DNA from: a virus
DNA length: 64,000 nt
IMG/VR virus record: IMGVR_UViG_3300032401_000002
Coordinates: 86,168 to 150,167 of that record
Direction: 5' to 3' (one strand)
Of this stretch, positions 14,136-63,995 are shown in pieces. Under the pieces are notes generated by a model that was not told the origin of the DNA, ran no database searches, and worked only from the letters and a program-made list of their open reading frames with translations. The translations under genes and the position numbers were made by a program. Within the stretch, counting starts at the first letter, position 1. Each line of letters opens with the position of its first letter.

Positions 14136-16832
14136 CTAGAAGATTGAGTCCTCGAACTCGTCTTCAACTGCGTGTGCGTCGATGTCGAACGAAGCAACCG
14201 GGCGGAAGCTCGGTACTCGTCCTGCTGTCGGTGCCTTCGTGCTCGTCGCCTTGCGGAGACCAGCGGTCTTGACCTTGGCGTACGCCTCGATCTGGGCGTC
14301 AAGCGCCTGAACCGGGGTGTCCTCTAGCTCGGACGCGCGGTCGAACTTCGCGTCAGAATCGAGGATGCCTAGCTCGACCTCAGTCTCTGCGACCTTGAGG
14401 GCCTTGTAGACCTGAGCCTTGGCGTTCGCTACTGCGACACCAATCGGGCCACCGACCTCGTTGGAGTTGTCGCCGCCAACAGGGTTAGCACCCTTGAGGC
14501 TACGGAACTCTTCACTGGAGTCGGTCTCGGTGGGGCCACCAACCTCTTCCTTCAGCGATCCGTCAAGCTGGACTCGCGTCGGGTCGTGATCGGGGAAGCC
14601 GTGGCCGGGAGAATCCCAGACGCCACTATCGTCAGCCGTCTTCTCCGTTGCGGAGACGGTGCTGAGCAACTCACCAGCATCACTCGTCACGGCATCCTGC
14701 TGACCAAGGCTATCGCCCTCGCCACCACTCCAGGTGTCCGTGTGGGGCGCGGTGAAGTCGCCCGTGTCCTTCTCTACGTTCTCGTTGTCGATGCCGCTCA
14801 GCGGATCTCCAGTGACAGCGCCCACGCCTTCTACGTCTACACGCTTGTCAGCCTGGACACCCTCACCATTAGCAGAGGCACCGTCAGCGATCTTTGTCTG
14901 TGCGGTCATGTTGTCCTTTCGGGTTTTACTTTCGACTGGAGCCTTCGAGTCCGTGATAACCTTCTTACCAATCGGCTTGTCTGACAACTGTCGTGTAACA
15001 GGAAGGATGGGCCGTTCCTGTGTCTTAATCCGTCCACCTTGGGCGGAAGTCTTCTCAACCTTTACAGTGGCCGTCTCTGCTACCTTTGATGTGGCAGGCA
15101 TAGCGCCGCCCGGCATGGGCTTGGGGCTACTCGGGTCGTTCGGGTTGGTCTGAATATCGTTGGGAGCGCCAGGCTGCTGGCCCTGTGCAGCCTGCTCAGC
15201 GTCCTGCTGATGCATCTGCTCATCGACCTCCTTGGCCTTCTCCAGGTCGGGATTGTCAAAGCCCTCGGGCGGCTCTTCGTAGTTGCAGACTTCGCAGACG
15301 CCGTCTTCCATATCGCTACCGCAGATCGGGCAAACCTGATCCTGACGAAGTGTGTCTACCTGATCGGGAGCAACCGTCATATCTGACTGCGGCTCGGGGT
15401 TACGGTCGGCTGTTACACCACGGCCACGCAAGATCTGCCGAATCTCATTTGCGTTCATGCCATACGAACGTGCGATGGCTTCCAAAGACTGGCCCTGTCG
15501 GTGAGCCGCCACAACGTCGTCATTCATGTTGGCCGTCTTGGCTGTTGAGCGATCCTCAAGACCAATCTGTTGTCCGGCTGCATCCCACTCTGCATCTGCT
15601 GCCTTCATAGCTGCATTGATTTCTGTCTGCTGCTCGGGGGAGAGCATGTTCCAGACGGACACGACCGAACCAGTCGAGCCTTCGCCCAGGAAGTCATTGC
15701 GATCTCCGGGGGTCTCAACGGTCGGGGTGCCATGCTCACCATAAGGGTCATGTCGATCTCCACCCATGGGAACAGCCTGCTTGTTCCGATCAAGATGGTC
15801 AACAAGCTCCCAGAGCTTCTGGTATGTGCCAGTGCTGATTCCACTGAGAGTCTCTGCGACCTCGTCGGGTGTGTAGTAGTCAAGACCTTCGGCGGGCGGG
15901 ATTGCTCCCTGTGCTCCGACGCCAGGTGCAACACCAGCGATGTTGTAGACCGGGACTAGATCTTCCTGCTGTGCTACCTGGACTCCGTACGGGGTCTGGA
16001 CGTGGTACTGAAGGATGCCACCATTGGCGGTGTAGTCCACGATCTTGCCGCTCTGGCCAGAGCCGGGGCCTCCACCGATCTGAACCTCTTCGCCAACGCG
16101 GAACTGCTGCGCGCCTTCTACCTGGACGGCAGACACGCGAGCGGCCTTCTTGATATCGCGCACGAGCGCGGTCTCATCGGCAGGATCGAAGACAAAGCTG
16201 ATCTCGAAGAAACCAATGTCGTAGCAGTCCTCATAGGACTTCTTGGCCACCTTCTGCCCACTCGGTGTGTGGAAGTCAAAGTATGCACCCTTGGACTGGA
16301 CGTGCTTGCAATATTGCTCGGGCGAGCGGGCTTCGTTACCGCAGTGTGAGCACTTGCTCAACTCTACGTTCGCACCCATGGACACGCCATCGATGTCGCC
16401 ATCTACGATAGCCTTGGCGAGCTTGGGGAACTTCTTGGCATCCACTTCGAGCAGAAGCTCGATCCAGGTTGCCGGAAGGTGATTGGCGGGAGCGGCCGAG
16501 TAGTACGGGTCGAGACTTGCTGTCTTCTCGTCCTCGATGTGCAGGGCTGCGTCCACGATGACACCACGCGCCCGCTTGGGGTCGCTGTTGTGGTGGTCTA
16601 CGAAGATCGGCTTGCCGATGAAGGTGCGCCAAGACTTCTCAAGCTCAGTGGCGGGCCATCCATCGTGGTTCTTGTTGACGCGCGATGAGATCGCTCGCAC
16701 GCGCACATAGACGTATCCGTCTTCAGTGCGATAGTCGTCGTACTCAGCGAACTTGGACAACGAAGCAGAGCGCTCCTTAGAGGGAGCGCTCTTGACTTCG
16801 AGGACTTCTAGCTTCGCGTACTTCTGGAACAC
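14136..16832 (-). CDS. Prohead (maturation) protease fused to SH3, HTH, Zn-ribbon and scaffold regions
   Basis: RAISSRVNKNHDGW, TFIGKPIFVDH, ARGVIVDA, DGVSMG (HK97/assemblin-type His/Ser protease); acidic scaffold-like C-terminus. Confidence 0.85.
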   Translation of the reverse strand: MFQKYAKLEVLEVKSAPSKERSASLSKFAEYDDYRTEDGYVYVRVRAISSRVNKNHDGWPATELEKSWRTFIGKPIFVDHHNSDPKRARGVIVDAALHIEDEKTASLDPYYSAAPANHLPATWIELLLEVDAKKFPKLAKAIVDGDIDGVSMGANVELSKCSHCGNEARSPEQYCKHVQSKGAYFDFHTPSGQKVAKKSYEDCYDIGFFEISFVFDPADETALVRDIKKAARVSAVQVEGAQQFRVGEEVQIGGGPGSGQSGKIVDYTANGGILQYHVQTPYGVQVAQQEDLVPVYNIAGVAPGVGAQGAIPPAEGLDYYTPDEVAETLSGISTGTYQKLWELVDHLDRNKQAVPMGGDRHDPYGEHGTPTVETPGDRNDFLGEGSTGSVVSVWNMLSPEQQTEINAAMKAADAEWDAAGQQIGLEDRSTAKTANMNDDVVAAHRQGQSLEAIARSYGMNANEIRQILRGRGVTADRNPEPQSDMTVAPDQVDTLRQDQVCPICGSDMEDGVCEVCNYEEPPEGFDNPDLEKAKEVDEQMHQQDAEQAAQGQQPGAPNDIQTNPNDPSSPKPMPGGAMPATSKVAETATVKVEKTSAQGGRIKTQERPILPVTRQLSDKPIGKKVITDSKAPVESKTRKDNMTAQTKIADGASANGEGVQADKRVDVEGVGAVTGDPLSGIDNENVEKDTGDFTAPHTDTWSGGEGDSLGQQDAVTSDAGELLSTVSATEKTADDSGVWDSPGHGFPDHDPTRVQLDGSLKEEVGGPTETDSSEEFRSLKGANPVGGDNSNEVGGPIGVAVANAKAQVYKALKVAETEVELGILDSDAKFDRASELEDTPVQALDAQIEAYAKVKTAGLRKATSTKAPTAGRVPSFRPVASFDIDAHAVEDEFEDSIF

Positions 16833-16840
16833 TGCTGTCC

Positions 16841-17716: not shown

Positions 17717-17762
17717 GTGATTGGTCGTAACTTAGGTGTCTGCTGTTAGCCTGAACATAGGG

Positions 17763-19306: not shown

Positions 19307-19314
19307 GTCAGTCC

Positions 19315-22300
19315 TTACCAGTTGAATTGGTCGTCTGTGCCGTCAACTACGTAGTGCGTGCCGTCAAGGTCTAGGCGATCAAGGTTTCTCGCTTCGCCGC
19401 CATCTTCATCGATGAATGCCCTCTGCTCGCGTGGATCGTAGTCCTTACCGGCCAATTTCGCCATTAAACCCGGATCTACGTCCACACCACCCGTAGAAGT
19501 ACCCTCCAGAAGCCATGTACGGTCTTCTGGGGCGTCTCCAGCGTATGCCCCAGTGAATGTGTCAAGTGAGACCATTTCGTCCTCAGAATCGCTTACAGCG
19601 CTGTTCTTGGAGTCGAGGTCGGAAATGTCATCCTGCTGGGGTGCTCCATCCATGCCGGGACGCGGGGGAGCTTCCTGATCCTGGAATCCATCTCCACTGT
19701 CCGTGATCTGGTCAGCGGGGGCTGCCGACGTGAATGTGGTACCATCTGTGTCTACCTGCTGCTTCGTAAGCTCGTGTCGGTAGGAGACGCCATCACCAGA
19801 GTCCACCGTGTAGGTGATCTTGTCTGGGAGAACTCTCTCGACTACGATCCGATCTGGGATCGCGAACGCGCCCGTCTTCATCTCGTACTCCTGACCTTCT
19901 TCGATCTGAGCGCCCTGATCATCTACCCAAGACTGTCCCTTGTCGGGATGATGAAGCTGATGGGGCTGCTGGGCTGCACCAACGCCACCCTCCTGCACTC
20001 TCTCTTCGCCTGCGGCGTAGAATGCGAACTCAGCATCAGTGGCTCCTCGATGGGCGAACATCTCGTCGTAGCTCGGCTGTCCGCGCTCATAGGCTTCATT
20101 GATCTCGTCTGATTCTGCGTACGGATTGAAAGCCTGTGCCTGATCATCCTGACCAAAGGAGATGCCGCACTGTCGGCACTGGTTCTGACCAGGGCCTGTT
20201 TCTACACCAGGGCCACCGCAAGCCGGGCAAATCGAGCCAGGCATGTCGGTGTCGTTATGAAAGTCAGATTCTGCAATCCAGTTGCCAACCTTGGTGACAA
20301 CCTTGGTGGGCTGAATCGCTGGGCCAATTGGCCCGGAAGCTGTGCCGGGGGCAACCTGATTCCCCTGCTGCGCAAGCTGCTGCTGCATGCTCGCATCAGG
20401 GCACGGGGTGCCAGCAATGTGGGACTGGCCACACATCGGGCAAGTCGGATTCTGTCCTACAGGTACGCCTGCCGCCTGGCCTGCGCCCGGCTGCGCGAAC
20501 TGCATCGGCGCGACACCAGCCATGCCAGCTTCCTTGATGCTTTCTCGCGAGGCGTCACATTCATCGCAGTGGCAATCTGACTCGTGCTCGGTAACGTCGT
20601 CATCGTCGTCATCGCTCGCTAGGTAGTCCCAGAGCGAAGCCTCCTTGGGCTTCTTCTCGTTGGCCTTCGGCTCGTCATCCGATGCTTCATCCGAGTCGTC
20701 TGAGTCATCCGACCCCTCATCCGAGATAGCCTCTTCTAGTGGCGATGTACCATCTTCCTGATCAAGACCATCCTTGTATCCGGGGAAGGCTTCTTCAAGG
20801 AGTGAATCTAGAGCTACCAAGATCGGGTTGTTAGTGCCCGGCTCGTCTGAGTCAGCAAACTCCATCACGAGCGGGAGGTTCAGGTGGAAAGCCTTCATGG
20901 CCTTGTCCTGCATCTCAGGATCGCCGTGACTGTTGATATCCTTGTCGGGGCCGTCAGGCGACTTGCCACCGCCTGTACCGTCAACATCCTTCAACTGCTC
21001 GGGGCCGTCACCCTGCTCCTTCTTGCCGCCGATGCCGCTGTCTGAAGCCTCATCTGTGGAGTTGGTACCGTCGTTCTTGGTTGCCCAACCATCTTCTTCT
21101 TCGCCGAAAGTGTCGGCCGTCTTGGAGACGAGTCCGATCTGCGAGGTATCGGTAGGATCTAGCGGGGCTGCACCGGGTGCGCCACCGCCTCCACCTTGAC
21201 CACCAGGGGATACAATGTTCCTACCTACACCCTGGACAGCACCCTGACCTAGCGCGCGGGTCATCATTCCACCTACGCCCGCCATGCCGCCAGCTTCTGC
21301 ACCGGCTGCCGCTGCGCCGCCGCCAATGCCCAACGCCTCACCGACACCCATCAGGGCAGGGATAGCGAGAGGGGCTGCTGTGACTTGCTGTGTGTGACCG
21401 CACGTATGACATACAGACGTGGATGCCTGCCTAATCATCGGGGAGTAACACTCGGGACAACTATCGAGGGGCGCTGCGTTGGCCTTGTGCCAAGCTAGCT
21501 CTTCATCGATGTGTGCGAAATACTCGGGCTTCAAGTTGATGTGTCCTCCACGTTGATGTTGGTACTGCATGATCTGATTCCAGGCATCGCGCTTCTGCCC
21601 TGGAGACCAATCCGCTGTAGCACCAGGCATCACAGTGATAGTATGGGAGTTCGGTTCAATCTTTAGGTAGTTGCCTGTCTCGACTTTGTTGTACTCGCCC
21701 TTGATGTCGAGGATCACAGGAATGCCCTCGGTGGTCGCCAGAACGGCCGCATGTGAGGTCATACCACCCGTTGCGGTGATGATTGCGCGCACACCTTTCT
21801 GCCATAGCATGAAGTCTTCAGGCTGAAGATGTTCGGCCACCAAGATAGCGTTCGGGGTGATCTCACCGTTCGAGCGTTCCTTGACCCAGGCGACTCCGGT
21901 GATGACTTCACCTTGCTGTTGGGGAGAGATGATCCACGTTCCTCCATGAATCTCGACGGGCTGGAATACCTGGCCCTTGCCCTGCGAGGGCGCTCCACCA
22001 ATCGGGCCATGAAGAGTGATGTTGGCACCAAAGGCTTGTTCGATCTGCTGCTGCGCTGACTCTTGGTTGAACTGTGTTCCGGGGAACACCCTCTGCACGT
22101 CGGCCGTGCCATCGTTGTAGACTGACCCAAGAGCGGCACAATCTTGCGGGTACCGAAGTCCGTTGCGCTCCGCTAGCTTCTCATGCACTGCATGAACACC
22201 ATGCTCAAAGTGCATCTGACCTTGCTTGTCGATAATCCACTTACCGATCTCGACCTTCATGTTCGCATCGCCTGAGAACATAGCGTCCCAGTCTTCTGCG

Positions 22301-22803
22301 GTGACCGTGCGGCTCGCAATCTTCTGGGCCATCTTCCAGGTCGCCAAGTTCATGGACGGATACGAGTCATCTGTCTTCATGCGGTTGCGCTTCGGCTCGC
22401 GCTCGGGCATGCCGTCTAGGTGATGCTCCTGCGGTGCCGGGTCGTTGTAGACGAACTCGTCGTCTTTCTTGTTCCACTCAGGAGTCAGGTCTTTGCCGCA
22501 TGTGGGGCATGCCCGCAAATCCGTGCTTTCTTGGCACAATGGGCAGTTGACAACTGTATTGCCCGTGAATCCGTGCATTGCAGCCATGTGCCCTTCAAGC
22601 TCGGGAACGCCAGCTAGCTCGGAGTGTTCTAGCTGATTCTGGTTGAACAAGTCGTTGTCACCACCAGTCGAGTGACCACGGTCAGGCCCAAGCCCGTTGT
22701 CGGGAGCTTTGATGTAGGTCTTCGACTCGGGTTCCCAGATCCAGACTGTGCCGGGATCTGTAGGATCGCTGAAGCTAGGCATGGGTAGATCGGGCATGGT
22801 CAC
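19315..22803 (-). CDS. Large multidomain virion protein (Zn ribbons, PEP-utiliser His domain, conserved C-terminal REQ..IDE...ARNLDRLDLDGTHY)
   Basis: GGMTSHAAV motif; several CxxC pairs; KxA-delimited segments. Confidence 0.7.
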   Translation of the reverse strand: MTMPDLPMPSFSDPTDPGTVWIWEPESKTYIKAPDNGLGPDRGHSTGGDNDLFNQNQLEHSELAGVPELEGHMAAMHGFTGNTVVNCPLCQESTDLRACPTCGKDLTPEWNKKDDEFVYNDPAPQEHHLDGMPEREPKRNRMKTDDSYPSMNLATWKMAQKIASRTVTAEDWDAMFSGDANMKVEIGKWIIDKQGQMHFEHGVHAVHEKLAERNGLRYPQDCAALGSVYNDGTADVQRVFPGTQFNQESAQQQIEQAFGANITLHGPIGGAPSQGKGQVFQPVEIHGGTWIISPQQQGEVITGVAWVKERSNGEITPNAILVAEHLQPEDFMLWQKGVRAIITATGGMTSHAAVLATTEGIPVILDIKGEYNKVETGNYLKIEPNSHTITVMPGATADWSPGQKRDAWNQIMQYQHQRGGHINLKPEYFAHIDEELAWHKANAAPLDSCPECYSPMIRQASTSVCHTCGHTQQVTAAPLAIPALMGVGEALGIGGGAAAAGAEAGGMAGVGGMMTRALGQGAVQGVGRNIVSPGGQGGGGGAPGAAPLDPTDTSQIGLVSKTADTFGEEEDGWATKNDGTNSTDEASDSGIGGKKEQGDGPEQLKDVDGTGGGKSPDGPDKDINSHGDPEMQDKAMKAFHLNLPLVMEFADSDEPGTNNPILVALDSLLEEAFPGYKDGLDQEDGTSPLEEAISDEGSDDSDDSDEASDDEPKANEKKPKEASLWDYLASDDDDDDVTEHESDCHCDECDASRESIKEAGMAGVAPMQFAQPGAGQAAGVPVGQNPTCPMCGQSHIAGTPCPDASMQQQLAQQGNQVAPGTASGPIGPAIQPTKVVTKVGNWIAESDFHNDTDMPGSICPACGGPGVETGPGQNQCRQCGISFGQDDQAQAFNPYAESDEINEAYERGQPSYDEMFAHRGATDAEFAFYAAGEERVQEGGVGAAQQPHQLHHPDKGQSWVDDQGAQIEEGQEYEMKTGAFAIPDRIVVERVLPDKITYTVDSGDGVSYRHELTKQQVDTDGTTFTSAAPADQITDSGDGFQDQEAPPRPGMDGAPQQDDISDLDSKNSAVSDSEDEMVSLDTFTGAYAGDAPEDRTWLLEGTSTGGVDVDPGLMAKLAGKDYDPREQRAFIDEDGGEARNLDRLDLDGTHYVVDGTDDQFNW

Positions 22804-24963: not shown

Positions 24964-25305
24964 TTAAGGGGTCGCCTGCGGGAGCAAGTCAGCGATATCG
25001 ATGAGGTCGATGTGCTCCTCGCCGTCCAAGAACGACTGCTCGTTGTTGTAGCGCGCAGCCTCATAGATCCGGTACGGAGGGATGCCACTCGGGCCTCCAG
25101 CTTCACCAGCAATGTACCTGCGTGTGTGCTCTTCCACGAAGCTACGAACGGCCTCGTCGGTGGGGTTAGCCCGAATGATCAGCGGCATACCCACGCTCGT
25201 GATCAACGCGACGACGCTGTCGTCGGGAATAGCCTTCTTGGTTGCTGCCTTGGGTACTGGCTTCTTCCTCGGCCCCGATGCTGTGGTCTTCTTAGCTACT
25301 GCCAT
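24964..25305 (-). CDS. Hypothetical protein with basic N-terminus
   Basis: ORF with SD, coupled to the upstream gene. Confidence 0.55.
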   Translation of the reverse strand: MAVAKKTTASGPRKKPVPKAATKKAIPDDSVVALITSVGMPLIIRANPTDEAVRSFVEEHTRRYIAGEAGGPSGIPPYRIYEAARYNNEQSFLDGEEHIDLIDIADLLPQATP

Positions 25306-25792
25306 GAATGAACTCCTCTACGATCTTGGGCATCTCTTGCTTCGGGTCGATAGTCAAGATGTGGTCGCCCTGCTTGGTGCCGTCCGTGAAGCTCACGAAC
25401 CAGCGAGTTGGTCTTACGCCCCAATACATCTCGGGGCGGTTGAAGTACACAGCTTCGGCTAGCTCAGCCGGGCCGGTACCGATACAGAAGTTGCAGAATC
25501 CAGGCACCGGGCCGTTGTAGTCTGCACTGGAGATTGCCGCATGCTGCACAGCCTCTGCCTTGTCTCCCTTGAAGTCGTACCCTACCTCGCGAACCCAGAC
25601 GTACGCTGGACGTTCTTCGCACTTCCAGCACACAGGCTCTCGTGATTCCGCCTTCTGCGTGAGGAAGATATTCTTCAGGTCGAGCGCTAGCTTCTCAGGC
25701 CCGGTCAAGTGACGCGGCTTTGCAACATCCTTGTCCGCGATCTTGAACATCCCGTTATCAAGTCGAGTCTCTTCTAGGATCTGGCTACTCAT
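25292..25792 (-). CDS. Hypothetical Zn-binding protein
   Basis: CWKC...CNFC; late motif 6 nt upstream. Confidence 0.6.
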   Translation of the reverse strand: MSSQILEETRLDNGMFKIADKDVAKPRHLTGPEKLALDLKNIFLTQKAESREPVCWKCEERPAYVWVREVGYDFKGDKAEAVQHAAISSADYNGPVPGFCNFCIGTGPAELAEAVYFNRPEMYWGVRPTRWFVSFTDGTKQGDHILTIDPKQEMPKIVEEFIHGSS

Positions 25793-25828: not shown

Positions 25829-27649
25829 CTAGCTGGAGAGTGACGCCCATTCCGATACCTCTTCCCAGTCTTCGTTTGAATGCTTGCGCCACCAATCCTT
25901 GATTGCTTCTTCCGCGTGTTCGCGAACTTCAGGCTCGGATAGCTGGGTGTGCTTGATCTTGATCTCGGAACCACTCGTGCGTAGCTCGCCCGTGTCGGTC
26001 TTTGTGGTGTCAATGTCCATCATCGCGTTGCCCGTGTCCACGCCGAACTTGTCGAGTAGCTCCTGGAGTATGTCTGTCACCTTGAGATTATGATCCCATT
26101 CCTTGATCACAAGTTCGCTCATGTAGTAGACGAACAAGTAATCAGGATCGCTGTCTTCGTCTGCTGCCGCCTTCAGGTTCTGGGACGGTACGCGCTGTGT
26201 CTTACCGGACTGGTAGTCCTTGACAAGCATGTGCTCGCCATCAGCCCCCAACACGATTCCAAGTCCGCCACCAGGCGTTGTGACTTGCGTCCCCTTGGCG
26301 AAGAGCGGAGCGCCAGTCTCAGTGATCGTCTCTGTGCCGGTAGGCTCGGACAATGCGTGACCGCATGTTCCTGCCATGCACTTCTGCATGCGGCGGGCTG
26401 TCTGCTGGTGAGCCAACTCGATGTTGGCCTTGCCGTGGTCGCCGTAGCCTGTTACGATGTGGTTGTAGCCGTCAGTGTCCGTCCACTGATAGACGGGCTT
26501 GCCGTTTCCGCTGTACCGATTGAAGCCCCATCCAAGCTCTTGGGCCAGTCCGTTCTCTCCGACTGCTCCGACCACAACGCGCGAGACGGGCTTGAGCGTG
26601 CGCTCGGGATCTTCGCCACATGAGGGACACTCGATGCGACCCTTGTGCTCGGCCTCGCGCTGGTACGTCACACCGCAGTGGTGACATCGCTTGATCGTGT
26701 GCTTGTGCTTGCCCTTCTTATCAACGATCTTCAACTCATGCACGTCCTCCTTGAAGGTGAACTTGCCCTCGTCATCTCTCTTGTGCTCGTCTTCCTCGAA
26801 CGCGGTCTTGGAGATAGCAGGCCCGAAGACATCATCGATGTCAGACCAATCATCGCCGCCAATCGCTTGGTCGGGGAGGTTAGCATTCTCGACGGCCAGA
26901 GCTTGTGACTGCGGGTCGGGAGTCTTGAAGGGGTTGAGATGACTGAAGTCATACGTACCTACCGTGATCATCTGCTTGTTGCCGATCCATGTGTCCGTTA
27001 GCCCCTCACGGAAGAAGACATACGCCTTGTCGGTGAAGAAGTTGAGGCGGACTCCGATCAGGGCGGGCTTCAGTCCATTCGCCATGCAGTAAGCGATCTT
27101 GGCCGCACGCTCGTCCTTGCCACCGATCTTGAATCGCTCCTGGGCTTGCGAGTGGTTCGTCTTGATCTCGACCCCGAAGTTGCCGCGCTCGCTGCGAATG
27201 ATGGCGTCAATCGGGAAGGTGTTCTGATTCGAAGCTGGCTCAACTGCACCAATACCTGGAAGCTCTCCGAGACCCAGGACAACCTGCTCGCCGATGTCCC
27301 CCATCTGCGAAAGCGTTAGACCAGATCGCGTACGCCCACCAGGATTCAGCACGGGCTTGCCGCTGCCGTCCGGGTCTTGAATGTGACTCTTGGAATCGTC
27401 CAGGTAGTTGTCCGTGTAGCCGCAATGAGGACAAGTGAACTCGCCACCGTTCTGCTCGATCTCCTGCATTTCACTTTGTGCAAAGTGATAACCGCACTTG
27501 GGGTTAGTGCAGTGAGCAGACGGATCTACATGATGCTGTTCGTTCGGGCCTGTCAGTTCAGCTACCGCGTCATCGACGTACTTGGGTCGTGCGACGGGCA
27601 TAGCAACGGCCTGCCAGTTTCCGATCTTCTCCCAGTCAAAGACAGTCAT
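25829..27649 (-). CDS. Multidomain protein: Zn ribbon + PD-(D/E)XK nuclease-like + Zn ribbon + SH3/KOW
   Basis: GDIGE...FPIDAII...GVEIKT; FEEDEHKRDDEGKF motif; FAKGTQV..PGGGLGIV. Confidence 0.7.
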   Translation of the reverse strand: MTVFDWEKIGNWQAVAMPVARPKYVDDAVAELTGPNEQHHVDPSAHCTNPKCGYHFAQSEMQEIEQNGGEFTCPHCGYTDNYLDDSKSHIQDPDGSGKPVLNPGGRTRSGLTLSQMGDIGEQVVLGLGELPGIGAVEPASNQNTFPIDAIIRSERGNFGVEIKTNHSQAQERFKIGGKDERAAKIAYCMANGLKPALIGVRLNFFTDKAYVFFREGLTDTWIGNKQMITVGTYDFSHLNPFKTPDPQSQALAVENANLPDQAIGGDDWSDIDDVFGPAISKTAFEEDEHKRDDEGKFTFKEDVHELKIVDKKGKHKHTIKRCHHCGVTYQREAEHKGRIECPSCGEDPERTLKPVSRVVVGAVGENGLAQELGWGFNRYSGNGKPVYQWTDTDGYNHIVTGYGDHGKANIELAHQQTARRMQKCMAGTCGHALSEPTGTETITETGAPLFAKGTQVTTPGGGLGIVLGADGEHMLVKDYQSGKTQRVPSQNLKAAADEDSDPDYLFVYYMSELVIKEWDHNLKVTDILQELLDKFGVDTGNAMMDIDTTKTDTGELRTSGSEIKIKHTQLSEPEVREHAEEAIKDWWRKHSNEDWEEVSEWASLSS

Positions 27650-30225
27650 TAGGCAGCCGGGATGATGTAGGGGTTCTGTTCATGCGGATGATGTCCGGGC
27701 ACCTGAGCCAGTGGCACGAGGTTCTGTGGCTGTCCCTGGAACTCCTGGTCGAAGTCGTTAGCTGCGCGTTCGATGTGGCCGCGCCCTGCCTCGAAGGCTT
27801 CGGGGCCAACCCATGCTCCAGCCTTCGCGTTGGTCGCTGCGTCCCACTTAGCATCCGGGCCGTTCCACGGGAGTGGGTCGAGGATGCGGAGGGGAGAGTG
27901 GTCGGAGTGCTCGCCGGGATTACGAATGGCATCCCACAGTCCCCAGTGGTACAAGCCCAGAGGCATGTGACTGTAGCCTGTCGCGTCCTTGCCTGCGCGC
28001 TGCATGCGCTCCATCTTGTAGTAGTCTCGGGGTGTCATATCCTTCTCTGATCGACGCAGACCGCGAATGACGTGAGTGTCGATGATGCCAAGCTCCGAAC
28101 CCATGGGGTGCAGAAGCAGCCATGCGAACGATGCCACTTTGGGGTTGACACCCGGCAGGTTCATGTTCATCACGGTGTTGCGGAAGTGGAATCCTTTGCC
28201 GCCAGTCTTCAGATCTTCAAGGGCTGCATCTCGAATCTCGCCGATGCGCTTGCCAACAGTCTCGATGGCGTCGAGATGGCCACCCATGAAGGCACCATAC
28301 TTGGCGTCCTGGCTGGAGAACCCACTGGCGTCCTGATTACCCTGCTGCCATGCATCGTCGTGCATGAATAGCTGATCCTCAGCGGCTCGCTTGGTTCCCC
28401 ACTCTTCCGGGAAGGTTGTGTCTCCGGGTCGCTGATCATGGATGGGGCTGACGTAGCCTTCTTCCCAGTGCTGCTTGGGCTTGGTGCCCATCTGCTGGTG
28501 CATCTGATTGCGCACCCAGTCAGGCCACTCCTCGGGCGGGAGAGTAGCCGCAACGTCACGCGCCATCGCGGCAGCGTTCTGGATCTCTTCAGCAGCGTCC
28601 TCGTAGAACTGCTCACTGGCAAGAGCCATCTGTCCCGGCGTCCATCCTCGTGCGGGGTTGTAGTTCTCCTTGAGCCAGGTGTCTACCATTCGACGTGCCA
28701 TGTTGTAGCGACGTAGCTCGGACTTCTCTCCAGTGTCGTGCTCGGTCGCAAGCTGGGCCTCGAACTCCTTGATCTTATTGAAGATGACTTCCTTGGCTTC
28801 CTTCATTGCCTTGGCGGGATCAAGAGTCGGATCGTCAGCGGTTAGTTCGTGAGCCAGATAGTCCAACTGCTTCTTGTAGCTCAGATGTGACCCCTCTGAG
28901 TACCCTAGAGACTGGTTGTGCTTCTCTCGCTCTTCTTCGAGCATGTGCCACAAGTCAACAGCCTTGGTCGAAGGATCAGCATGCATAAGTGCCTGGTAGT
29001 GAGCGGCGTTCCAGCGAAGGTGCTTGCGGGGAGACAAGAGCGCCACACGGAAGGCGTTCATGATCGCACGCTCCTGAGTAGCCTTGTCCTCGCTCGGCCA
29101 ATCGGTATCGATCTTGGCTGCGTTCTGCGTTGTGGCCGCTGCGTCGATGTAGTCGTCCTCGGGCATCTCGGCGAAGTTCTTGGGCGGCACAGAGTGAGGG
29201 GGCTGCCAGAAGGCATTTGGATCGTGCGGGCGGTCGGGTGATACCATCTTCGCTCCTTCGACCTGATGCGTCTTCACGTCGAAACCCTGCATGACAGGAT
29301 TGCCCAGTCCGAAGGTTGGGGATGGTACGTAGTTCTGAGGCATGACCCAGGAGCCAGGCCCCTGCGTGTTAGCATCGGGGGACGCCTGGTCGAGCGCATC
29401 CTTCCCCTGGTTCATGTTGTCCGGCTGGTTGAACTGAGGTAGCCCGCCATGAGGCACGAACACATGCTCACCATGCTTCTCCTGCACGGGGTGAAGGAAC
29501 TTGCTCATGAAGCCAACCTTCTGCGGGCCGAAGCCCTTGGTTGACGAGCGATACGCTACCTGCCCAATGCACTCGGTGAAGAGCGCCTCACGGGCCAGAG
29601 GAGACACGAGGGGGAAGTGGACGCCACAAGCTAGGTTCTCGCCTCGCCACGAGAAGTCCCCGCCCGACTGAGCGTGCCCCAGAACGTCATGGACGATGCG
29701 GAAGTTCACGTTGTCTTCGACGCTCCAGATTGGGTGCTCGGAGTTAGCTCGGGAGACGATGAAATGCTTGTTCTTGTGGATGTCTTCAGCCATCTCTGCC
29801 GCGTCAGCGTATGGCTCAGGATCATCTGACACCTGAACGGTGATCTGCTGACGAATAGCATCGGCCTGGATCTTGGACTCAGCAGCCAAAGCCTTCCACG
29901 CGGGCACGGCGGCATCGTCAAACGGCGGCAGGGCTGCGTACGCCTTGGCAATCTCATCCTTCTCTGACAGCCAGTCGCTCGCCCAGGCAGCGATCTTGAG
30001 TGAAGCCATACGCCGCACCTTCGTGGCTTGCACCGCATATCGGTACACGGCGGCAAGCGCGATGGCAGGCGTCTTGCCTGAGCGCTCGATGTCTTGGCCG
30101 GTCTCCTCATTGCTCGCCTTGGCGACGTACACGTCACCCTTGCGGTCAATCTTGCCGAGACTCCAGCCCAGGCTCGTCAGCTTCTCGTAGATTTCTGACT
30201 GTGGCGTGGCTACTTGCATGGTCAC
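27649..30225 (-). CDS. Multidomain protein: FRIVHDVLGH domain + C-terminal HhH DNA glycosylase-like domain
   Basis: NVNFRIVHDVLGH...F...GE..A...H; LPGVNPKVASFA...IIDTHV...Y..ME...HWGLW. Confidence 0.7.
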   Translation of the reverse strand: MTMQVATPQSEIYEKLTSLGWSLGKIDRKGDVYVAKASNEETGQDIERSGKTPAIALAAVYRYAVQATKVRRMASLKIAAWASDWLSEKDEIAKAYAALPPFDDAAVPAWKALAAESKIQADAIRQQITVQVSDDPEPYADAAEMAEDIHKNKHFIVSRANSEHPIWSVEDNVNFRIVHDVLGHAQSGGDFSWRGENLACGVHFPLVSPLAREALFTECIGQVAYRSSTKGFGPQKVGFMSKFLHPVQEKHGEHVFVPHGGLPQFNQPDNMNQGKDALDQASPDANTQGPGSWVMPQNYVPSPTFGLGNPVMQGFDVKTHQVEGAKMVSPDRPHDPNAFWQPPHSVPPKNFAEMPEDDYIDAAATTQNAAKIDTDWPSEDKATQERAIMNAFRVALLSPRKHLRWNAAHYQALMHADPSTKAVDLWHMLEEEREKHNQSLGYSEGSHLSYKKQLDYLAHELTADDPTLDPAKAMKEAKEVIFNKIKEFEAQLATEHDTGEKSELRRYNMARRMVDTWLKENYNPARGWTPGQMALASEQFYEDAAEEIQNAAAMARDVAATLPPEEWPDWVRNQMHQQMGTKPKQHWEEGYVSPIHDQRPGDTTFPEEWGTKRAAEDQLFMHDDAWQQGNQDASGFSSQDAKYGAFMGGHLDAIETVGKRIGEIRDAALEDLKTGGKGFHFRNTVMNMNLPGVNPKVASFAWLLLHPMGSELGIIDTHVIRGLRRSEKDMTPRDYYKMERMQRAGKDATGYSHMPLGLYHWGLWDAIRNPGEHSDHSPLRILDPLPWNGPDAKWDAATNAKAGAWVGPEAFEAGRGHIERAANDFDQEFQGQPQNLVPLAQVPGHHPHEQNPYIIPAA

Positions 30226-56462: not shown

Positions 56463-56470
56463 GTTTCTCC

Positions 56471-58073: not shown

Positions 58074-61000
58074 CTAGGACTTGACCCATGCTCCATTGAC
58101 ATACGAGAACGACGCTGTCTGGCTTGCAACCTCGACGGGCTTGTCGATCTCGCCGCCCCATGCGTCGAAGTTCTGATCGTCCTTGTCGTACTCCACCAAC
58201 GTGACGTACATAGCCAGAGGATCGACGCCTGCCTGCACGAGGTACTCGTTGTTCTGGTCGTTCTCGTACCTGTCGGGGTTCATCTCGAACCCAGCCTGAT
58301 CTGCGATAGCTTCGTAGATCACTGTAGCCATCCAGTAGCGGTCAGAGTTGTAGCCTTCGTTCTCGGCTTCTGAGTCTTGCTCGAACGTAGCGTAGTATTG
58401 AGCGTTGGATCGGTCAGTCGTCCACAGTCCACGAGTGAACTGGTCAGCCAACTGGGCCGGGTCTTCCAGCACGTTCCATGGTGCTACTCGGGATGCTCCT
58501 CGATACACTGTCGTGGCGCTAGCCGTCTTGACAGAGCCTTGAGCGAACTGCTTGTCCCAGTCTTCAGGCGATGTATCCCAGCCATCATCCATGTCCATGT
58601 CGGCTTGTTCGGCGATGCTGTCGGGATCATGGCCCTTGGTGAGCGGCATACCAACGGCAGCTTCAAGCCTCTCGATGTGCTCGGGTGTGACATTGGGTCG
58701 CATCCAGATCGCATGCGTGTTGCCCTGAATGGCACCATCAAGGAACTGACCAGGGTACTTGAATGGATGCTGGTTGTACCAGTCCAGGATAGGAGCTTCT
58801 AGGTGGCGGTGGAAGTGACCAGGCGTTCCCATGTGCAGGATGTCATTGCCTCGGTCGTACTTGTAAGGCGTGCGGTTCTCCCACATGTCGAAGTCCTGGC
58901 CCATCTCGCCCTCGAAGTTCACTCGGTTGCTGGGAGTGTGGTCAACGATGTGGGTTGCCGTCCTCACGCGGGCAGCCTTCCAGCCTTCTTCTGCGTCATC
59001 CTGCTTGTCGAGTCGGTTCCACTCCATGCGGTTGGTGAGGGAGTCATCTTGATGGTCTTCATCGTCGTACTCGAAGTCGTCAGTGTCGATCCAGGGCTGG
59101 CGCTCCATCCAGTCTTCAAGAGCATCGCGCTCCCTGTCGTAGTATTCGTCCTCGTCATCGTCTTCACCCGGCCCACTCCACTCGGGGTGATCCTTGTAGA
59201 AGTCGTCCATGTACTCGCCGTCTTCGTCCATGATGCGGAAGTTGCCGTGCTCGATCTTGGACGGGTGGATCGGCCCGTAGTGCATTACGGGGTACCCATA
59301 CTCCTCGCTCAAGAACTTGGCTGTCTCTTCCCTCAAGTCGTTGGGCATTTGGCGCAATACGTTGACCGAGTGCTGGTGATGTCCACCACGCTCGTACCCG
59401 TACGCCTGCGCTCCTCCCAGGTCATCCTGGTCGTACCCAGGGTTCTCCTTCTCGTACGCATCGATGTGAGGCTGGATGCGATCAACGAGATCACTCTGCG
59501 TCGAAGACTCGCCATCCCTGTGCCACTCGGCAGCTTCCTGCTGCTCGGGGTAACGTCCCATGTATTGGTCGTAGAAGTGCTCGTGGTCTGGGCCGAGGTT
59601 GTTCTTGTCGATCCCCTTGACGCGCAGGATGCGAGGGTCAGTCCAATGGCCCTGCATGCGCTGGTACTGAAGGGCCTTCTGTGCGTTGGGCCACAGATAC
59701 ACAGCGTTCTCTTCGATAGGTAGGTTCCACTTGCGCTCGGTGCCTTGCTCTGATCCCACCAACCCCTGCTTGGCGATATCGGGGATGCGGTCGGCCTCGG
59801 TGACGTGGTACCAAGTGTTGTCGTCGTAGGGCATGGAGATTGCGGTCATAGCCAGCTTGAGTTCGGGCTTAGCCAAGCTCACGAGATCTTCGGCCCTGCG
59901 GTTCTCGATGTCAGAGTCATGGGGATACCACTGGACGTGGTACGTTCCATCGTCGTACCAGTTGTAGCCCTCGACATGGCCCGTCATGCCTTCACGTCCT
60001 GACCCAGGTGCGCCGGTAACAGCTTCGCCCTTGACGAAGGACTGCTGGCCACCACCTTCAAGCACGACGGGGTTGAATGCTGCCGTGTGCTCAGCCAACG
60101 TGATAGCGGGATCGATGCCTGCCTCGATCATGTCACGCTGGACTGACTTGCGGTGCTCGTTCATGTCACCCAATGCATATCCCTTGTAGGGTAGGATCTG
60201 ACCTTCAGCGATCTCGCCCGTGATGCCTGAGTACGGTAGGCGCTTGCGGATCGAGTCATGGTGCTTGCCCTGCTCGCCGAACTGGGTCTTGTCTACCTCG
60301 GGATAGTGGATGTACGGGATGCGGTTCTGCCAGTAAGCGTTCATGCGGTCGGTGCGGAGTGGCTGCTCCTTCTGCTCATTCAAGATCTCCTCCCACAAGT
60401 CAGTGCGCCCTGCGTGCTTGGCCGTCTTGCTCACCCACCCGTGCAGTGCGTTCTCAGTGTGATTGATGCCTGCCTGCTGCGCCCACTGTCGAACCATCTC
60501 GGTGTGCTCGGGCAGGGGTGCCTTGTTGCGTGGGCCAAGCACCTGGCCCAGGTTGCCCGTACCATCTGGCTCGTGCCACACGCCATCCTCGTACGTCTTC
60601 CAGATGCCTCGCCCCACCTGGAAGGATGCGAGAGGTAGGTTGGCGGGGTCACGCAGCGAGTAGTGCTCTGAGCCATTGATCGGGATGTGCTCGCCATCCT
60701 TGAAGATCGACCCATTCTGCTGCCAACAGTTGCGCATCATCACGCCTTCACGGTTCTTGTCTGCCATCGTCTTGAGTTGGCGAATCGTGTGACCATCTGG
60801 GAACTGATGCACGATCTCTGACTGATCAGGGCCTTGCGTTAGGTCGATCTCGTCGTTGGCACGCAGTCGCTGGTTGTACGTCTCGCCCGCTAGCTTGGTC
60901 TGAGCGTTGCGGTAGTAGTCGTTGCCTGCTTCGCCCCATGGCATGGTGTCGGGCCACTGCGTCTTGGCCATCTCTTCCACCGTGTTGTCTGATGGGATAA

Positions 61001-63995
61001 CCTCGTCGTTGCGTCCGATCTCGTACTCTGTTCGGCATCGAGGACATGTGGCCCCGCCTTCGAACAAGATCTCTAGCTGGCTGCCACACAACGGACACTC
61101 GGGGTACACATCACGATCTCCAACAGTGTCGAAGTTCCAGTCGGTTGAGTGTCCTGCCGTGGATAGCTTACCCTGAATTGCGATCCGAGATGGATCAATG
61201 TGGTCTAAGGTAGCCGCTGTCTGCGTCCACGAAATCGCTTCGTCAACGATTGTGGGATCACTTACAAGATCGTGCAGAGACACAGCGCCCTCATCCGACT
61301 CGATATACCCTGGGCCTTCCTCCCACCAAATCTCATCACCGTCGATTTGTCCACCTGTATCCACCAGACTCGGCAAGTCGGCCATGAGCTTCAGGCCATT
61401 GACGTTGACCTGGAGGATGGTGTAGTCTAGACGATTGAACGCCTGATTCTCCTTGGCCAACTCCCACGGCGAATATGCTAGGTAGACGGGTCGTCCACCA
61501 TAGAAGGCGTCAGCCCACGTACCAGCGTCCGTGAAGCCACCTTCTGCGCCTGGGGTCAAGCCCTGCTGCATGATGGTGGCAACGTTCTTGGTCTCGGTCA
61601 CATGATACATGGTCTCACCTTGTGCCATCTTCAACAGCTTGGTCACGACAGGATTGGGTGCTGGGATGGGCCTTGGGTTCTGAGCTTCAGCGTTGTAGTA
61701 GTCTGATTCGGTGTTGGGCTTGCCGAGGGGCTGGCCAACCACCGGCATCTGGAAGTGAGGCAAGCGCTCGATCTGCTCGTACCAGTTGGGGCCATGGACG
61801 TAGCCTGAGCCTTCGCCGTTGCCTCGATCCTGCACCCACTGTTGCCTACCAGCGAATGTGTTCTCGGGGTACTGATGACCACCAGGGATGTGGGGGTAGT
61901 TCAAGTTGTTGTGGTTCAAGTCGTTGCCAGGTGCGTTGTGTACCGGCAGCGTGGTCTCCAACGCAGTCTTTTCGTATGTCGCCACCCAGTCAAGCAGGTT
62001 GTCCACTCGGACGAACTGTTGCTCTCCTTGATCGAAGAGGGCCTGCTGCGGGTCGGCTGAGTCCTGCTGCTTGCGGCCAGCCTTCCATAACTGGATGCGG
62101 TCGTCCAACAATTCGAGGAGAGCTTGACCTTCTCGTCCATGTACTTGCATGAGATGGTGGGCCGTGGTGTACAACACTTGGGCTAGATGTCGAGCGTCCA
62201 CGCCTTTGTTGGCTGCTGTGATGGCTTGGTCGATGATCGGCTCGATGGCTTCGTTGTTGTTGTGCCCGGCGTTGTAGTTCTGATACCCCTGGATGTGGTT
62301 CGGCGTCTGGTACATCCAGACACTAGGGTTGCCGTTGGCGTCGTGCTCGACCTCGCCTTCTTCGTCTGTATGTGCCCACGGGTCACGATCCATCACGGCT
62401 TCGTGGTAGTCCTGCGCTCCCGCTAGCGTGTTGGGGTAGACCGTCTGGGCAGGATGGTAGTCAACGTCGGGGTCGTTGTACCAGGCTTCTTCGTCAAAGC
62501 CTTCGCCTACGTCGTACCCTGCTTTGTCCAAGTGCTCGTACCACTCATCGACCATAGCCTTGTACTCGGGCTTGATGTTGCCGTTCGACTTGCCCTGCTC
62601 TTGTACGACCTTGAACTCCTTGTCGTCGTAGATGGTGCGGTCGCCATTGGCTATGGGGCCAGAAGCCATGGGGTTAACATCGCCTTCAACTTCGATGGTG
62701 ACATGCGGATGGCCCTTGGGGTCACGGAGTGAGAAGATGGTTGAGTTGCCGTTGCTCACAGTGTCGCAGTACCCACCAACGCAGTGACCCATCAGTTCGC
62801 CCTCTAGCGCTAGATCCTTGGGGCCGACTTTGTCGATGTGCCAACCATCATCGAACGTGTGGACAACTGTTGAGTCAACCCACCCGCCGCCGTTCTCTTC
62901 GCGGTGCTGCTTGTCCATGTCGTAGACCCACTGCTCAAGCTGGGCGAAGTCGAACTGCTTGTTCATGTAGTCTGGGAGTGGCTTGTTGTGCTCGTTGGCC
63001 CAGACCATCCACTTGGTGGCTTGGTCGAGGATGTCCTCAGCGTGTCGTCGGTTGTTCTTGGTGATGCCTGGTCGATCTTCGCGCTGGCCAGGATACGCCT
63101 CGATGAAGTTGGGGTCGATGGGCTTGAGTCCACGCTTGTACTCCCTAACTGCCCACGGCATCAGCTTGAAGCCCTCGTCCGGGATGCCGTCGAGGATGAT
63201 CTTCAAGCGCTTCCAGTCAGTCATGATGGCGTTGCCACCATCTGAGTAGTCGTACGGCCCAGCGTTGTTGGGCGGTGGCATCTTGGTCGGGCCACCTTCA
63301 TCAGTGTTCTTCAGCTTGAGGATGTCCTCGCGGTTCAATAGCTGCTCTCGTGTCTTGGTTGCCAATGCTGACACGTCCGCTGCTAGTCGTGGCCAGAAGC
63401 CCCGCATAACACGTCGCTTGTGATGTGTTAAGCGCTGATTGGCTAGATAATCCATCACATGTGATGTCTTATGGTCACCCATCATCTCGACGTGCTGAGC
63501 ATACGACTCAGGGTCGTGCTTCTGTGCCCACTCTCTGCCAGCGTCTGACTGGTTGTCCCAATCGTGCTCGGGGTTGTGGCCCTGATCTCGAAGGTGATTG
63601 AACATGGCATCAGCCACACCACGCCGACGCCATCGAGGGTTGACCTCGACCTGCGTGACCAGGCCATCGGAGTCGATGAACATGTGCCCAACTTCTGAGT
63701 TGCTGAATCCAGTGAAGGCGTAAGCCTCGATCAGTGTTGACCCCTCGCCATCTTGATCGCTTGTGACCTCGAACGTCAGTTGAGGCAGATCACCACGCTG
63801 ACCCATGCCCAGCTTTGTAGACAAACTATGAGGAGTTGTCGAAACTGCACCCCCCTTTGACTTTGCAGTGTTACGAGCTTCCTTCTTGGCTGCGATCAAC
63901 TCACCATCAGTCCACTGCTGTGCCAACTCCAACGTGAACGTGCCACCGTTGGCCTCGACCGCCTTAGCGATCTCCTTGTGCTCAAGCTCGGCCAA
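58074..63995 (-). CDS. Giant polyvalent protein (GNAT, 2x PcfJ-like, 3x ADP-ribosyltransferase-like, SH3, Zn ribbon); N-terminus probably beyond the window
   Basis: VEVNPRWRRRGVA; EGELMGHCVGGY; MYHVT..NV.TIMQQGL; WYHVT......I.KQGL; VYRG...GLWTT....A..YA; frame open to the window edge. Confidence 0.8.
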   Translation of the reverse strand: MAELEHKEIAKAVEANGGTFTLELAQQWTDGELIAAKKEARNTAKSKGGAVSTTPHSLSTKLGMGQRGDLPQLTFEVTSDQDGEGSTLIEAYAFTGFSNSEVGHMFIDSDGLVTQVEVNPRWRRRGVADAMFNHLRDQGHNPEHDWDNQSDAGREWAQKHDPESYAQHVEMMGDHKTSHVMDYLANQRLTHHKRRVMRGFWPRLAADVSALATKTREQLLNREDILKLKNTDEGGPTKMPPPNNAGPYDYSDGGNAIMTDWKRLKIILDGIPDEGFKLMPWAVREYKRGLKPIDPNFIEAYPGQREDRPGITKNNRRHAEDILDQATKWMVWANEHNKPLPDYMNKQFDFAQLEQWVYDMDKQHREENGGGWVDSTVVHTFDDGWHIDKVGPKDLALEGELMGHCVGGYCDTVSNGNSTIFSLRDPKGHPHVTIEVEGDVNPMASGPIANGDRTIYDDKEFKVVQEQGKSNGNIKPEYKAMVDEWYEHLDKAGYDVGEGFDEEAWYNDPDVDYHPAQTVYPNTLAGAQDYHEAVMDRDPWAHTDEEGEVEHDANGNPSVWMYQTPNHIQGYQNYNAGHNNNEAIEPIIDQAITAANKGVDARHLAQVLYTTAHHLMQVHGREGQALLELLDDRIQLWKAGRKQQDSADPQQALFDQGEQQFVRVDNLLDWVATYEKTALETTLPVHNAPGNDLNHNNLNYPHIPGGHQYPENTFAGRQQWVQDRGNGEGSGYVHGPNWYEQIERLPHFQMPVVGQPLGKPNTESDYYNAEAQNPRPIPAPNPVVTKLLKMAQGETMYHVTETKNVATIMQQGLTPGAEGGFTDAGTWADAFYGGRPVYLAYSPWELAKENQAFNRLDYTILQVNVNGLKLMADLPSLVDTGGQIDGDEIWWEEGPGYIESDEGAVSLHDLVSDPTIVDEAISWTQTAATLDHIDPSRIAIQGKLSTAGHSTDWNFDTVGDRDVYPECPLCGSQLEILFEGGATCPRCRTEYEIGRNDEVIPSDNTVEEMAKTQWPDTMPWGEAGNDYYRNAQTKLAGETYNQRLRANDEIDLTQGPDQSEIVHQFPDGHTIRQLKTMADKNREGVMMRNCWQQNGSIFKDGEHIPINGSEHYSLRDPANLPLASFQVGRGIWKTYEDGVWHEPDGTGNLGQVLGPRNKAPLPEHTEMVRQWAQQAGINHTENALHGWVSKTAKHAGRTDLWEEILNEQKEQPLRTDRMNAYWQNRIPYIHYPEVDKTQFGEQGKHHDSIRKRLPYSGITGEIAEGQILPYKGYALGDMNEHRKSVQRDMIEAGIDPAITLAEHTAAFNPVVLEGGGQQSFVKGEAVTGAPGSGREGMTGHVEGYNWYDDGTYHVQWYPHDSDIENRRAEDLVSLAKPELKLAMTAISMPYDDNTWYHVTEADRIPDIAKQGLVGSEQGTERKWNLPIEENAVYLWPNAQKALQYQRMQGHWTDPRILRVKGIDKNNLGPDHEHFYDQYMGRYPEQQEAAEWHRDGESSTQSDLVDRIQPHIDAYEKENPGYDQDDLGGAQAYGYERGGHHQHSVNVLRQMPNDLREETAKFLSEEYGYPVMHYGPIHPSKIEHGNFRIMDEDGEYMDDFYKDHPEWSGPGEDDDEDEYYDRERDALEDWMERQPWIDTDDFEYDDEDHQDDSLTNRMEWNRLDKQDDAEEGWKAARVRTATHIVDHTPSNRVNFEGEMGQDFDMWENRTPYKYDRGNDILHMGTPGHFHRHLEAPILDWYNQHPFKYPGQFLDGAIQGNTHAIWMRPNVTPEHIERLEAAVGMPLTKGHDPDSIAEQADMDMDDGWDTSPEDWDKQFAQGSVKTASATTVYRGASRVAPWNVLEDPAQLADQFTRGLWTTDRSNAQYYATFEQDSEAENEGYNSDRYWMATVIYEAIADQAGFEMNPDRYENDQNNEYLVQAGVDPLAMYVTLVEYDKDDQNFDAWGGEIDKPVEVASQTASFSYVNGAWVKS

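Follow-up and report, generated by a model that had tools for sequence, protein, structure and literature searches.

What are the very long minus-strand proteins of this phage made of, and what is the short tripeptide that recurs between their modules? The stretch analysed here (hereafter the window) comprises 64,000 nucleotides of IMGVR_UViG_3300032401_000002 and forms the terminal part of that linear 150,167-bp IMG/VR virus record, which has a CheckV completeness of 93% and comes from an uncultured soil myovirus of ~160 kb, kin to the Bixzunavirus (cluster C) actinophages and large mycobacteriophages. A sequence-only reading of the window had proposed that six large minus-strand proteins are strings of unrelated domains, punctuated by [K/R]-x-[A/S] sites for a maturation protease and packed into the phage head. 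All six open reading frames are present at the coordinates claimed, large proteins built as strings of unrelated modules are indeed found, and the prohead protease (14136-16832) and major capsid protein (MCP; 12413-13462) had been correctly identified. Based on the analyses below, we consider it probable, though well short of certain, that several of these late proteins are polyvalent cargo chains of the kind described by Iyer et al. 2017 (PMC5512222), and that they are cleaved by a T4 gp21-like head protease whose specificity, for Ala at P1, is new. Their module repertoire includes ADP-ribosyltransferase (ART)-fold, GNAT, 2H phosphoesterase, PcfJ-like, zinc-ribbon and His-rich domains.

The motif as originally written does not stand out. 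Expected counts were taken from composition-shuffled sequences, and by this measure the loose form [KR]-x-[AS] occurs at chance frequency in the six proteins (observed/expected 21/19.4, 21/13.0, 8/8.5, 16/14.3, 9/7.2 and 12/11.4). The part of the claim that holds concerns a narrower, ordered core, [KR]-[T>V,L,I,M]-A, the last position of which is sometimes S or G. K-[TLMIV]-A occurs 9 times in the protease protein against 1.4 expected (z score 6.7), 6 times in the giant protein encoded at 58074-63995 against 1.4 (z 3.9) and 5 times in a 1162-aa protein against 1.0 (z 4.4). In 10 head-associated proteins taken together, [KR][TLMIV]A is found 44 times against 14.6 expected, a 3-fold enrichment (P 4e-10), and [KR]-T-A alone is enriched 5.2-fold in these proteins. 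The enrichment is restricted to the head-associated proteins: 23 tail proteins hold 26 occurrences against 22.9 expected and all other open reading frames 70 against 67.3.

In an unbiased scan of all 8000 tripeptides in seven of the proteins, SKT ranked first and KTA second by over-representation. KTA occurs 10 times and each of its five permutations only 2-4 times, which argues against an effect of composition, and a K/T/A-rich linker composition is excluded as the cause of the enrichment by this permutation control; the same order specificity is seen in four phages. Known patterns of other proteases show no such excess in the same head-associated proteins, where the T4-type [LI]-x-E stands at 0.92-fold, the phiKZ-type [SAG]-x-E at 0.93-fold and the assemblin-type pattern at 1.03-fold. 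A tandem-repeat origin of the tag in this phage was considered and rejected, the modules being mostly unrelated.

The enrichment was replicated independently in 17 other phage genomes. In three cultivated relatives the ordered motif, with R substituting for K where the genome is GC-rich, is enriched in giant proteins of the head module: gp94, gp102 and gp103 of I3, gp149 and gp157 of Skog, and gp12 (13 sites against 2.7 expected), gp13 and gp17 of Finch. All 14 of 14 metagenomic orthologues of the protease fusion are enriched as well (z 3.5-7.8), and in an alignment of seven such orthologues the motif columns form conserved islands amid unalignable linkers. In Finch, gp12 (6105-8504; 799 aa) carries 13 [KR]-[TLMIV]-[AS] sites, mostly K-T-A, which delimit acidic units of ~55-75 residues; paralogy links some of these units but not all, a zinc ribbon makes up one of them, and gp12 has the appearance of a polyprotein composed of small internal head proteins.

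Whether the motif marks the joints between modules was addressed by comparing the giant protein with its relatives. None came up when 12 kb was searched with Megablast against the phage collection, tblastn with the giant protein returned PcfJ fragments only, and two scans of viral contigs found no relatives; those used here were obtained from a HMMER search of representative proteins together with a metagenome scan. The HMMER search, which was exhaustive and used residues 780-1973 of the giant protein as query, yielded three long relatives, P0002 (3455 aa, with blocks 93-99% identical), P0003 (3742 aa) and P0005 (1973 aa), as well as ~100 free-standing proteins of 140-190 aa each, which match only residues ~794-942. 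The following features of the giant protein are referred to below.

58074..63995, minus strand: giant polyvalent protein, C-terminal 1973 aa, ~13 modules joined by [KR]-x-[A/S/G] sites
61623..61631, minus strand: joint K789-M-A791, directly upstream of the ART-fold module
61161..61622, minus strand: module 792-945, ART fold by AlphaFold2 and Foldseek, ending in K943-L-S945
60888..61160, minus strand: module 946-1036, zinc ribbon (CxxC...CxxC seen; Pfam match sub-threshold), ending in K1034-L-A1036
60420..60887, minus strand: module 1037-1192, second PcfJ-like module, ending in K1190-T-A, absent from P0002
59850..59858, minus strand: joint K1380-L-A1382, preceding the second ART-like module
58521..58529, minus strand: joint K1823-T-A1825, at which P0002 has an extra module

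Modules are gained and lost at these sites, as the sequence-only reading had anticipated, in P0002, P0003 and P0005 and likewise among orthologues of two further proteins described below. Joint KMA 789-791 is kept as KMA in P0003 with a different module after it. The conserved end of the zinc ribbon, GNDYYR[NT]A, is followed by [KR]-x-A and then by a different module in each genome, and in P0005 the zinc ribbon lies between KTA1116 and RTA1198. The second PcfJ-like module is present or absent, relative to P0002, exactly between K-L-A and K-T-A, and P0002 has a single K-Q-A in its place. Joint KLA 1380-1382 is KVA in P0003 and RLA in P0005, with a different module following in P0005 and a GNAT module inserted between KLA2834 and KVA2931 in P0003, and at KTA 1823-1825 an additional module of ~127 aa lies between two KTA sites in P0002. 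Taken over the three relatives, 6 of 13 homology breakpoints fall within 5 residues of a site of the narrow motif (null mean 0.85, P about 5e-5), and several others fall at the variant tags KLG and HTA. The joint sites remain [KR]-x-A in relatives of 48% identity. Not every occurrence listed earlier is a joint, since the in-domain look-alikes RIA 937 and RVA 1836 of the giant protein are not conserved in the relatives, and KLA 137 of the protease is a structural element.

Module 792-945 also shows where a module ends. Its free-standing homologues have N-termini at 791-796 (mode 794) and C-termini with a mode at 942, at most 3 residues inside KMA 789-791 and KLS 943-945. The tag sits like an add-on at the C-terminus of each module, as would be expected if the cut came after Ala. 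The AlphaFold2 model has a mean predicted local distance difference test (pLDDT) of 88, and among the Foldseek matches listed nearly all have the ART fold (Tpt1/KptA, DarT1, pertussis-like toxins, PARP), with probabilities of up to 1.0 at template modelling (TM) scores of only about 0.4. Across 41 homologues, the His of Y-H-x-T and a Tyr are invariant. The model therefore supports an ADP-ribosyltransferase assignment at the level of fold for this module, and the second and third modules that had been called ART show weak paralogy only, as do the proposed His domains. The other domain calls have Pfam support of varying strength: PcfJ is supported in the giant protein, and searches with ten pieces of it added only sub-threshold matches to GNAT (N-terminal) and to the zinc ribbon.

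The giant gene itself is incomplete. It is cut off at the record end (window 63995), where homology to P0002 continues to the last base of the contig, and P0002 and P0003 both extend further N-terminally; the start had been placed outside the window, which is correct, and it is absent from the whole record as well. Completion of the gene by a circular wrap-around was rejected, as the 7 residues it would add are not homologous to the relatives. The first genes of the record (sigma factor, MazG) have their matches in a 223-kb metagenomic relative at positions ~7 kb upstream of its giant gene, and ~11 kb therefore seems to be missing, in agreement with the CheckV estimate; the absent part seems, from this comparison, to hold ~1500 residues of the giant protein and ~7 kb of upstream genes.

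Three of the other large proteins show the same organisation, and two do not.

40882..43854, minus strand: 990-aa polyvalent protein, consisting of a PcfJ body, K730-V-A, a variable module, K823-Q-A, GNAT, K-G-A/K-I-S/K-T-S at 958-966 and a short tail
32383..34380, minus strand: 665-aa three-module protein with Pfam and PHROG matches and a central 2H phosphoesterase
32914-33399, minus strand: 2H phosphoesterase, residues ~328-489, between K325-K-A and K490-T-S
19315..22803, minus strand: 1162-aa head-module protein with variable N-terminal cargo, a conserved site and a conserved C-terminal tail
19450-19458, minus strand: site K1116-L-A of the 1162-aa protein, conserved
19318-19449, minus strand: 44-aa C-terminal tail of the 1162-aa protein, conserved
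25829..30225, minus strand: 606-aa and 858-aa proteins, unsupported as motif-punctuated polyproteins

In the 990-aa protein, which matches PcfJ and Acetyltransf_1 in Pfam, homology of the body to its orthologues stops at 729-735 and the GNAT domain runs from 823-825 to 956-958; in some orthologues the protein stops exactly ahead of KVA, and others add an ART-like or other module after KVA or KTS. The joint columns of the 665-aa protein are partly conserved, with the 2H domain flanked by K-[KQT]-A and K-x-[SA], and at the second joint the orthologue P0218 carries an additional module of ~230 aa, flanked by KKA and KMA. Homologues of the 2H domain from Streptomyces prophages and metagenomic phages are fused to an HK97-type prohead protease (PF04586), a portal (PF04860) or Mu gpI (PF10123). 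These fusions to head proteins are independent evidence for a cargo inside the head, and they suggest that the 2H phosphoesterase may be a widespread head-packaged enzyme.

The 1162-aa protein is the orthologue of I3 gp102, and its tail, [KR]-[TLV]-A|G-K-x-[FY]-x-P-x-E-Q-R...LDL.GTHY, is also found in I3 gp102, Finch gp16, Skog gp156 and most of nine metagenomic orthologues, with the basic site before the tail absent from four orthologues. An unusual cargo domain in this head-module protein is a PEP-utilizers mobile (phosphohistidine swivel) domain at residues 316-380 (window 21664-21858; Pfam E value 7e-15). The 1162-aa family (19318-19449) and the protease family (14139-14270) both have conserved tails with acidic-aromatic C-termini (..DDQFNW and ..EDSIF), and it is possible that these are capsid- or portal-docking peptides.

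The proposal of six motif-punctuated proteins is thus reduced to four (58074-63995, 40882-43854, 32383-34380 and 19315-22803). Genes 25829-27649 and 27649-30225 show no significant motif enrichment (6 against 3.2), and the homology breaks of the 858-aa protein encoded by the latter are not located at sites. Conservation of this protein is high (60-80% identity in many contigs), inteins interrupt some of its homologues, and its module 91-245 recurs in proteins carrying 2H, Fic, CCA-nucleotidyltransferase or PcfJ domains.

A late motif had also been described directly upstream of four of the six genes. The late motif that could be located is CCGATAA[AG]GAG, which has four copies in the genome, at window positions 1098, 25806, 34396 and 43869 on the minus strand, each 14-16 nt 5' of a minus-strand late gene (552-1082, 25292-25792, 32383-34380 and 40882-43854). 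The four late genes include those of the 990-aa and 665-aa proteins, and the element may be a shared signal for translation or late expression. Between these two polyprotein genes sits a cluster of four neighbouring paralogous genes (window 35226-39392), of which three, with products of 312, 325 and 444 aa, fall into phrog_9600 ('tail assembly protein'); the 306-aa gene lying between them has no PHROG match.

The motif is shared with the capsid proteins and with the protease, and it is this sharing that makes it probable that the chains are packed in the head and cut there into separate enzymes. The genes concerned are as follows.

16128..16832, minus strand: prohead protease domain, residues 1-235, T4 gp21-like, with H80 (DHHN) and S151 (GVSMG) invariant
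14139..16127, minus strand: C-terminal extension that follows the protease domain (residues 236-898), variable in sequence apart from a zinc ribbon and at least 7 motif sites
13505..14050, minus strand: minor capsid protein, with homologues in I3, Finch and Skog that are encoded at the Myrna gp98 position
12413..13462, minus strand: major capsid protein, HK97 fold, phrog_2522
13433-13450, minus strand: R5-T-A7 / K8-H-S10, the motif at the N-terminus of the MCP
genome 23482-25830, outside the window: portal
genome 28545-30728, outside the window: terminase

R-T-A lies at residues 5-7 of both the MCP and the portal, and an R-T-A site is read in the N-terminal sequence of the minor capsid protein. 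That the motif occurs at the MCP N-terminus is confirmed by a conserved R-x-[AS]-K-[AH]-S-D-D-Y-V behind a leader of variable length; the capsid protein of phage G is merely shorter at its N-terminus and is thus uninformative on processing. The MCP shares 55% identity with its counterparts in Mycobacterium cluster C phages (Bxz1, I3), in Rhodococcus phage Finch and in Gordonia phage Skog and 71-91% with those on many soil-metagenome contigs, and the gene order of protease fusion, small (minor) capsid protein and MCP is common to this phage, I3, Finch and Skog.

The protease domain matches phrog_18299 'head maturation protease' (E value 5e-21) and phrog_2774 (5e-66), and in tblastn it matches annotated prohead core proteases of jumbo phages (1e-9 to 1e-12). 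Together with the placement of its gene among the capsid genes, which is that of I3, Finch and Skog, these matches indicate that it belongs, as judged by sequence, to the T4 gp21-type prohead protease family. H80 and S151 are invariant in 15 orthologues. In hhalign, S151 falls onto position 140 of T4 gp21, in GVSS and with a shared K-L-A...G-V-S element, at a very low probability given the single-sequence template; the serine at that position is presumably the catalytic one, and KLA 137 is the element held in common with T4 gp21 and no site. The domain has no Pfam match and no sequence match in the PDB, either as a single sequence or as a profile. Its AlphaFold2 model has a mean pLDDT of only 51 and no significant Foldseek match, with T4 gp21 (5jbl) at rank 6 (E 0.16). 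A complex prediction of the domain with a 42-residue joint peptide scored 0.02, which gives no verdict and was used neither way. The motif follows the protease domain, as had been noted, through the C-terminal extension in which the enrichment given above for this protein resides, and the extension is probably a core, scaffold or cargo part.

From this pattern we infer cleavage, the bond that is cut, the identity of the protease, packaging in the head, injection and a role in counter-defence. At its C-terminus each module of a chain bears the short tag, [K/R]-[T>V,L,I,M]-A with S or G sometimes last, and the chains would be co-assembled into the prohead. There the gp21-like serine protease, with its own extension tagged alike, would cut after the small residue, reading P3-P2-P1 as basic, beta-branched or aliphatic, and Ala. 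The same protease would trim the N-termini of the MCP and the portal, and the freed enzymes would remain inside the capsid until they pass into the cell together with the DNA. Packaging of the chains in the virion has indirect support from the late-strand context, the tag in capsid proteins and the fusion of 2H domains to head proteins elsewhere.

Several points weigh against this reading. The genes of the giant, 990-aa and 665-aa proteins lie among tail and early-type genes, outside the head module, so that for these three a location in the head is suggested by the motif alone. Known motifs of the T4- and phiKZ-type proteases end in Glu ([LI]-x-E, A-x-E), and the tag here ends in Ala with a basic P3. 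The code is fuzzy, since variants at P3 and P1 occur (VTA, HTA, YTA, KLG, KSG), and the N-terminal 1514 aa of P0002 hold few sites of the narrow motif. The protease model is too poor for the specificity pocket to be viewed, and the absent 7% of the genome could encode another protease. The head-associated set behind the pooled statistic was partly picked, for the motif, by the sequence-only reading. A literature search returned no virion proteomics or cleavage data for Bxz1, I3 or Myrna.

Two alternatives are taken seriously, although we regard each of them as unlikely. The tag might be cut by a host protease or by an unrecognised phage protease, possibly encoded in the missing part of the genome, in the cytoplasm or after injection, with the head proteins merely sharing the tag. 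Such a scheme would suit the position of the three chain genes outside the head module and the cleavage of known gp21-type proteases after Glu (PMC10052503); P0005 moreover has a ClpP-family gene adjoining its giant gene, and post-injection processing is also considered by Iyer et al. (PMC5512222). It accounts poorly, however, for a tag that is densest in the protease's own extension in 15 of 15 orthologues, that is also found on the MCP, the portal and the minor capsid protein, and that follows the gp21-like protease clade from I3 through the metagenomic relatives, and the record encodes neither a ClpP nor a polyvalent-protein zincin.

With a similarly low probability, the tag could be an uncleaved linker or a signature of recombination, the chains acting intact as the N4 virion RNA polymerase does. 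Modules would then be shuffled at conserved joint sequences, or a turn of a basic residue, Thr and Ala would be preferred between domains. In favour of this, cassettes are exchanged exactly at the tag, the tag is short and degenerate, and certain polyvalent proteins are known to reach the cell uncut (PMC5512222). A linker has no evident reason, on the other hand, to appear as the same ordered tripeptide at residues 5-7 of the MCP and portal, in a single-domain minor capsid protein and in the scaffold-like tail of the protease, nor to be absent from multi-domain tail proteins. The free-standing homologues start just after the tag and end just before it, and the conservation is at the amino-acid level, with K and R and T, V, L and I interchanging. 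Chance, to which the loose motif at expectation and several in-domain occurrences would point in view of how readily a degenerate three-residue motif falls near a boundary, is effectively excluded by the order-specific enrichment, the top two ranks among 8000 tripeptides, the pooled P of 4e-10, the replication in 17 other genomes and the breakpoint P of about 5e-5.

If the tag is a cleavage site, the cluster C / Bixzunavirus group, to which Bxz1 and the classic transducing phage I3 belong, would have a first code for cleavage by its head protease, and a gp21-type protease could evidently be retuned at P1 from Glu to Ala. Unreadable 'hypothetical proteins' of 1000-3700 aa would then resolve into inventories of separate enzymes, each with definite ends and probably injected, among them nucleic-acid-type ADP-ribosyltransferases, acetyltransferases and 2H phosphoesterases as candidates for host takeover or anti-defence. 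The code would also account for the swapping-in of new effectors with their neighbours left undisturbed. A bolder version, which we put forward tentatively and with less confidence than the reading above, is that Bixzunavirus-related actinophages use a plug-and-play head cargo. Any domain ending in [K/R]-T-A could be spliced into a few carriers addressed to the prohead by their tails, and the gp21-like protease, changed from Glu to Ala at P1, would free a dozen or more enzymes (ART, GNAT, 2H, PcfJ and others) from each chain. This would be a double-stranded DNA phage counterpart of the polyproteins of RNA viruses, and the injected arsenal of each phage could be listed from sequence by means of the code. 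As cultivable relatives share the tag, the prediction of cleavage at it is directly testable.

Among known systems, the herpesvirus assemblin, of the fold superfamily to which the protease of this phage presumably belongs, cleaves after Ala, as is proposed here; its consensus is hydrophobic-x-A|S, which is the unenriched assemblin-type pattern above, and its substrates are scaffold proteins only. In T4, the ADP-ribosyltransferase Alt and the internal proteins, which are further effectors, enter the head, lose a targeting sequence to gp21 and are injected. The nature of this cargo resembles that of the chains, but each T4 internal effector has its own gene and its own N-terminal targeting peptide, whereas the effectors here are concatenated, and the conserved C-terminal tail of the 1162-aa family may do the targeting. 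Proteases of the gp21 type recognise a tripeptide at P3-P1 and process numerous internal proteins of the head, and propeptides may hold several sites (PMC10052503). In T4, phiKZ, 201phi2-1 and SPN3US (gp21, gp175, gp245) what appears to be the same family cuts the MCP, the portal, itself and abundant internal or ejection proteins in the prohead. Those substrates lose propeptides, whereas many enzymes would be separated from one chain here, and Glu-ended motifs occur at only 0.92-0.93 of expectation in the head proteins of this phage; it is the specificity, judging from the motif, and not the family membership that would differ.

Another parallel is with the polyvalent proteins. As described by Iyer, Burroughs, Anand, de Souza and Aravind 2017 (PMC5512222), these combine 2-15 unrelated domains in one polypeptide of a phage or conjugative element and show rapid domain shuffling between related elements with mosaic architectures. 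The prediction there is that they travel in the head, are injected along with the DNA and may be split into separate domains by associated peptidases, including assemblin-like ones. The idea of head-packed, peptidase-released chains is accordingly not a new system, having been predicted in that work (PMC5512222). The chains studied here share the combination of many unrelated enzymatic domains in one phage polypeptide, such as ART beside GNAT and peptidases in the published cases: the giant protein holds two PcfJ domains, an ART fold, a zinc ribbon and a GNAT-like domain, the 990-aa protein PcfJ and GNAT, and the 665-aa protein 2H and two others, and domains are shuffled across P0001, P0002, P0003 and P0005 and across the 990-aa and 665-aa orthologues. 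The passages searched in that paper chiefly propose autoproteolysis by a zincin within the chain and describe no inter-domain cleavage code, and its text does not mention PcfJ. Here, by contrast, an ordered tag shared with the capsid proteins stands at essentially every joint tested, and, with no zincin encoded, it points to a separate gp21-like head protease. What this actinophage clade adds to the known theme of polyvalent proteins is its specific [K/R]-T-A code.

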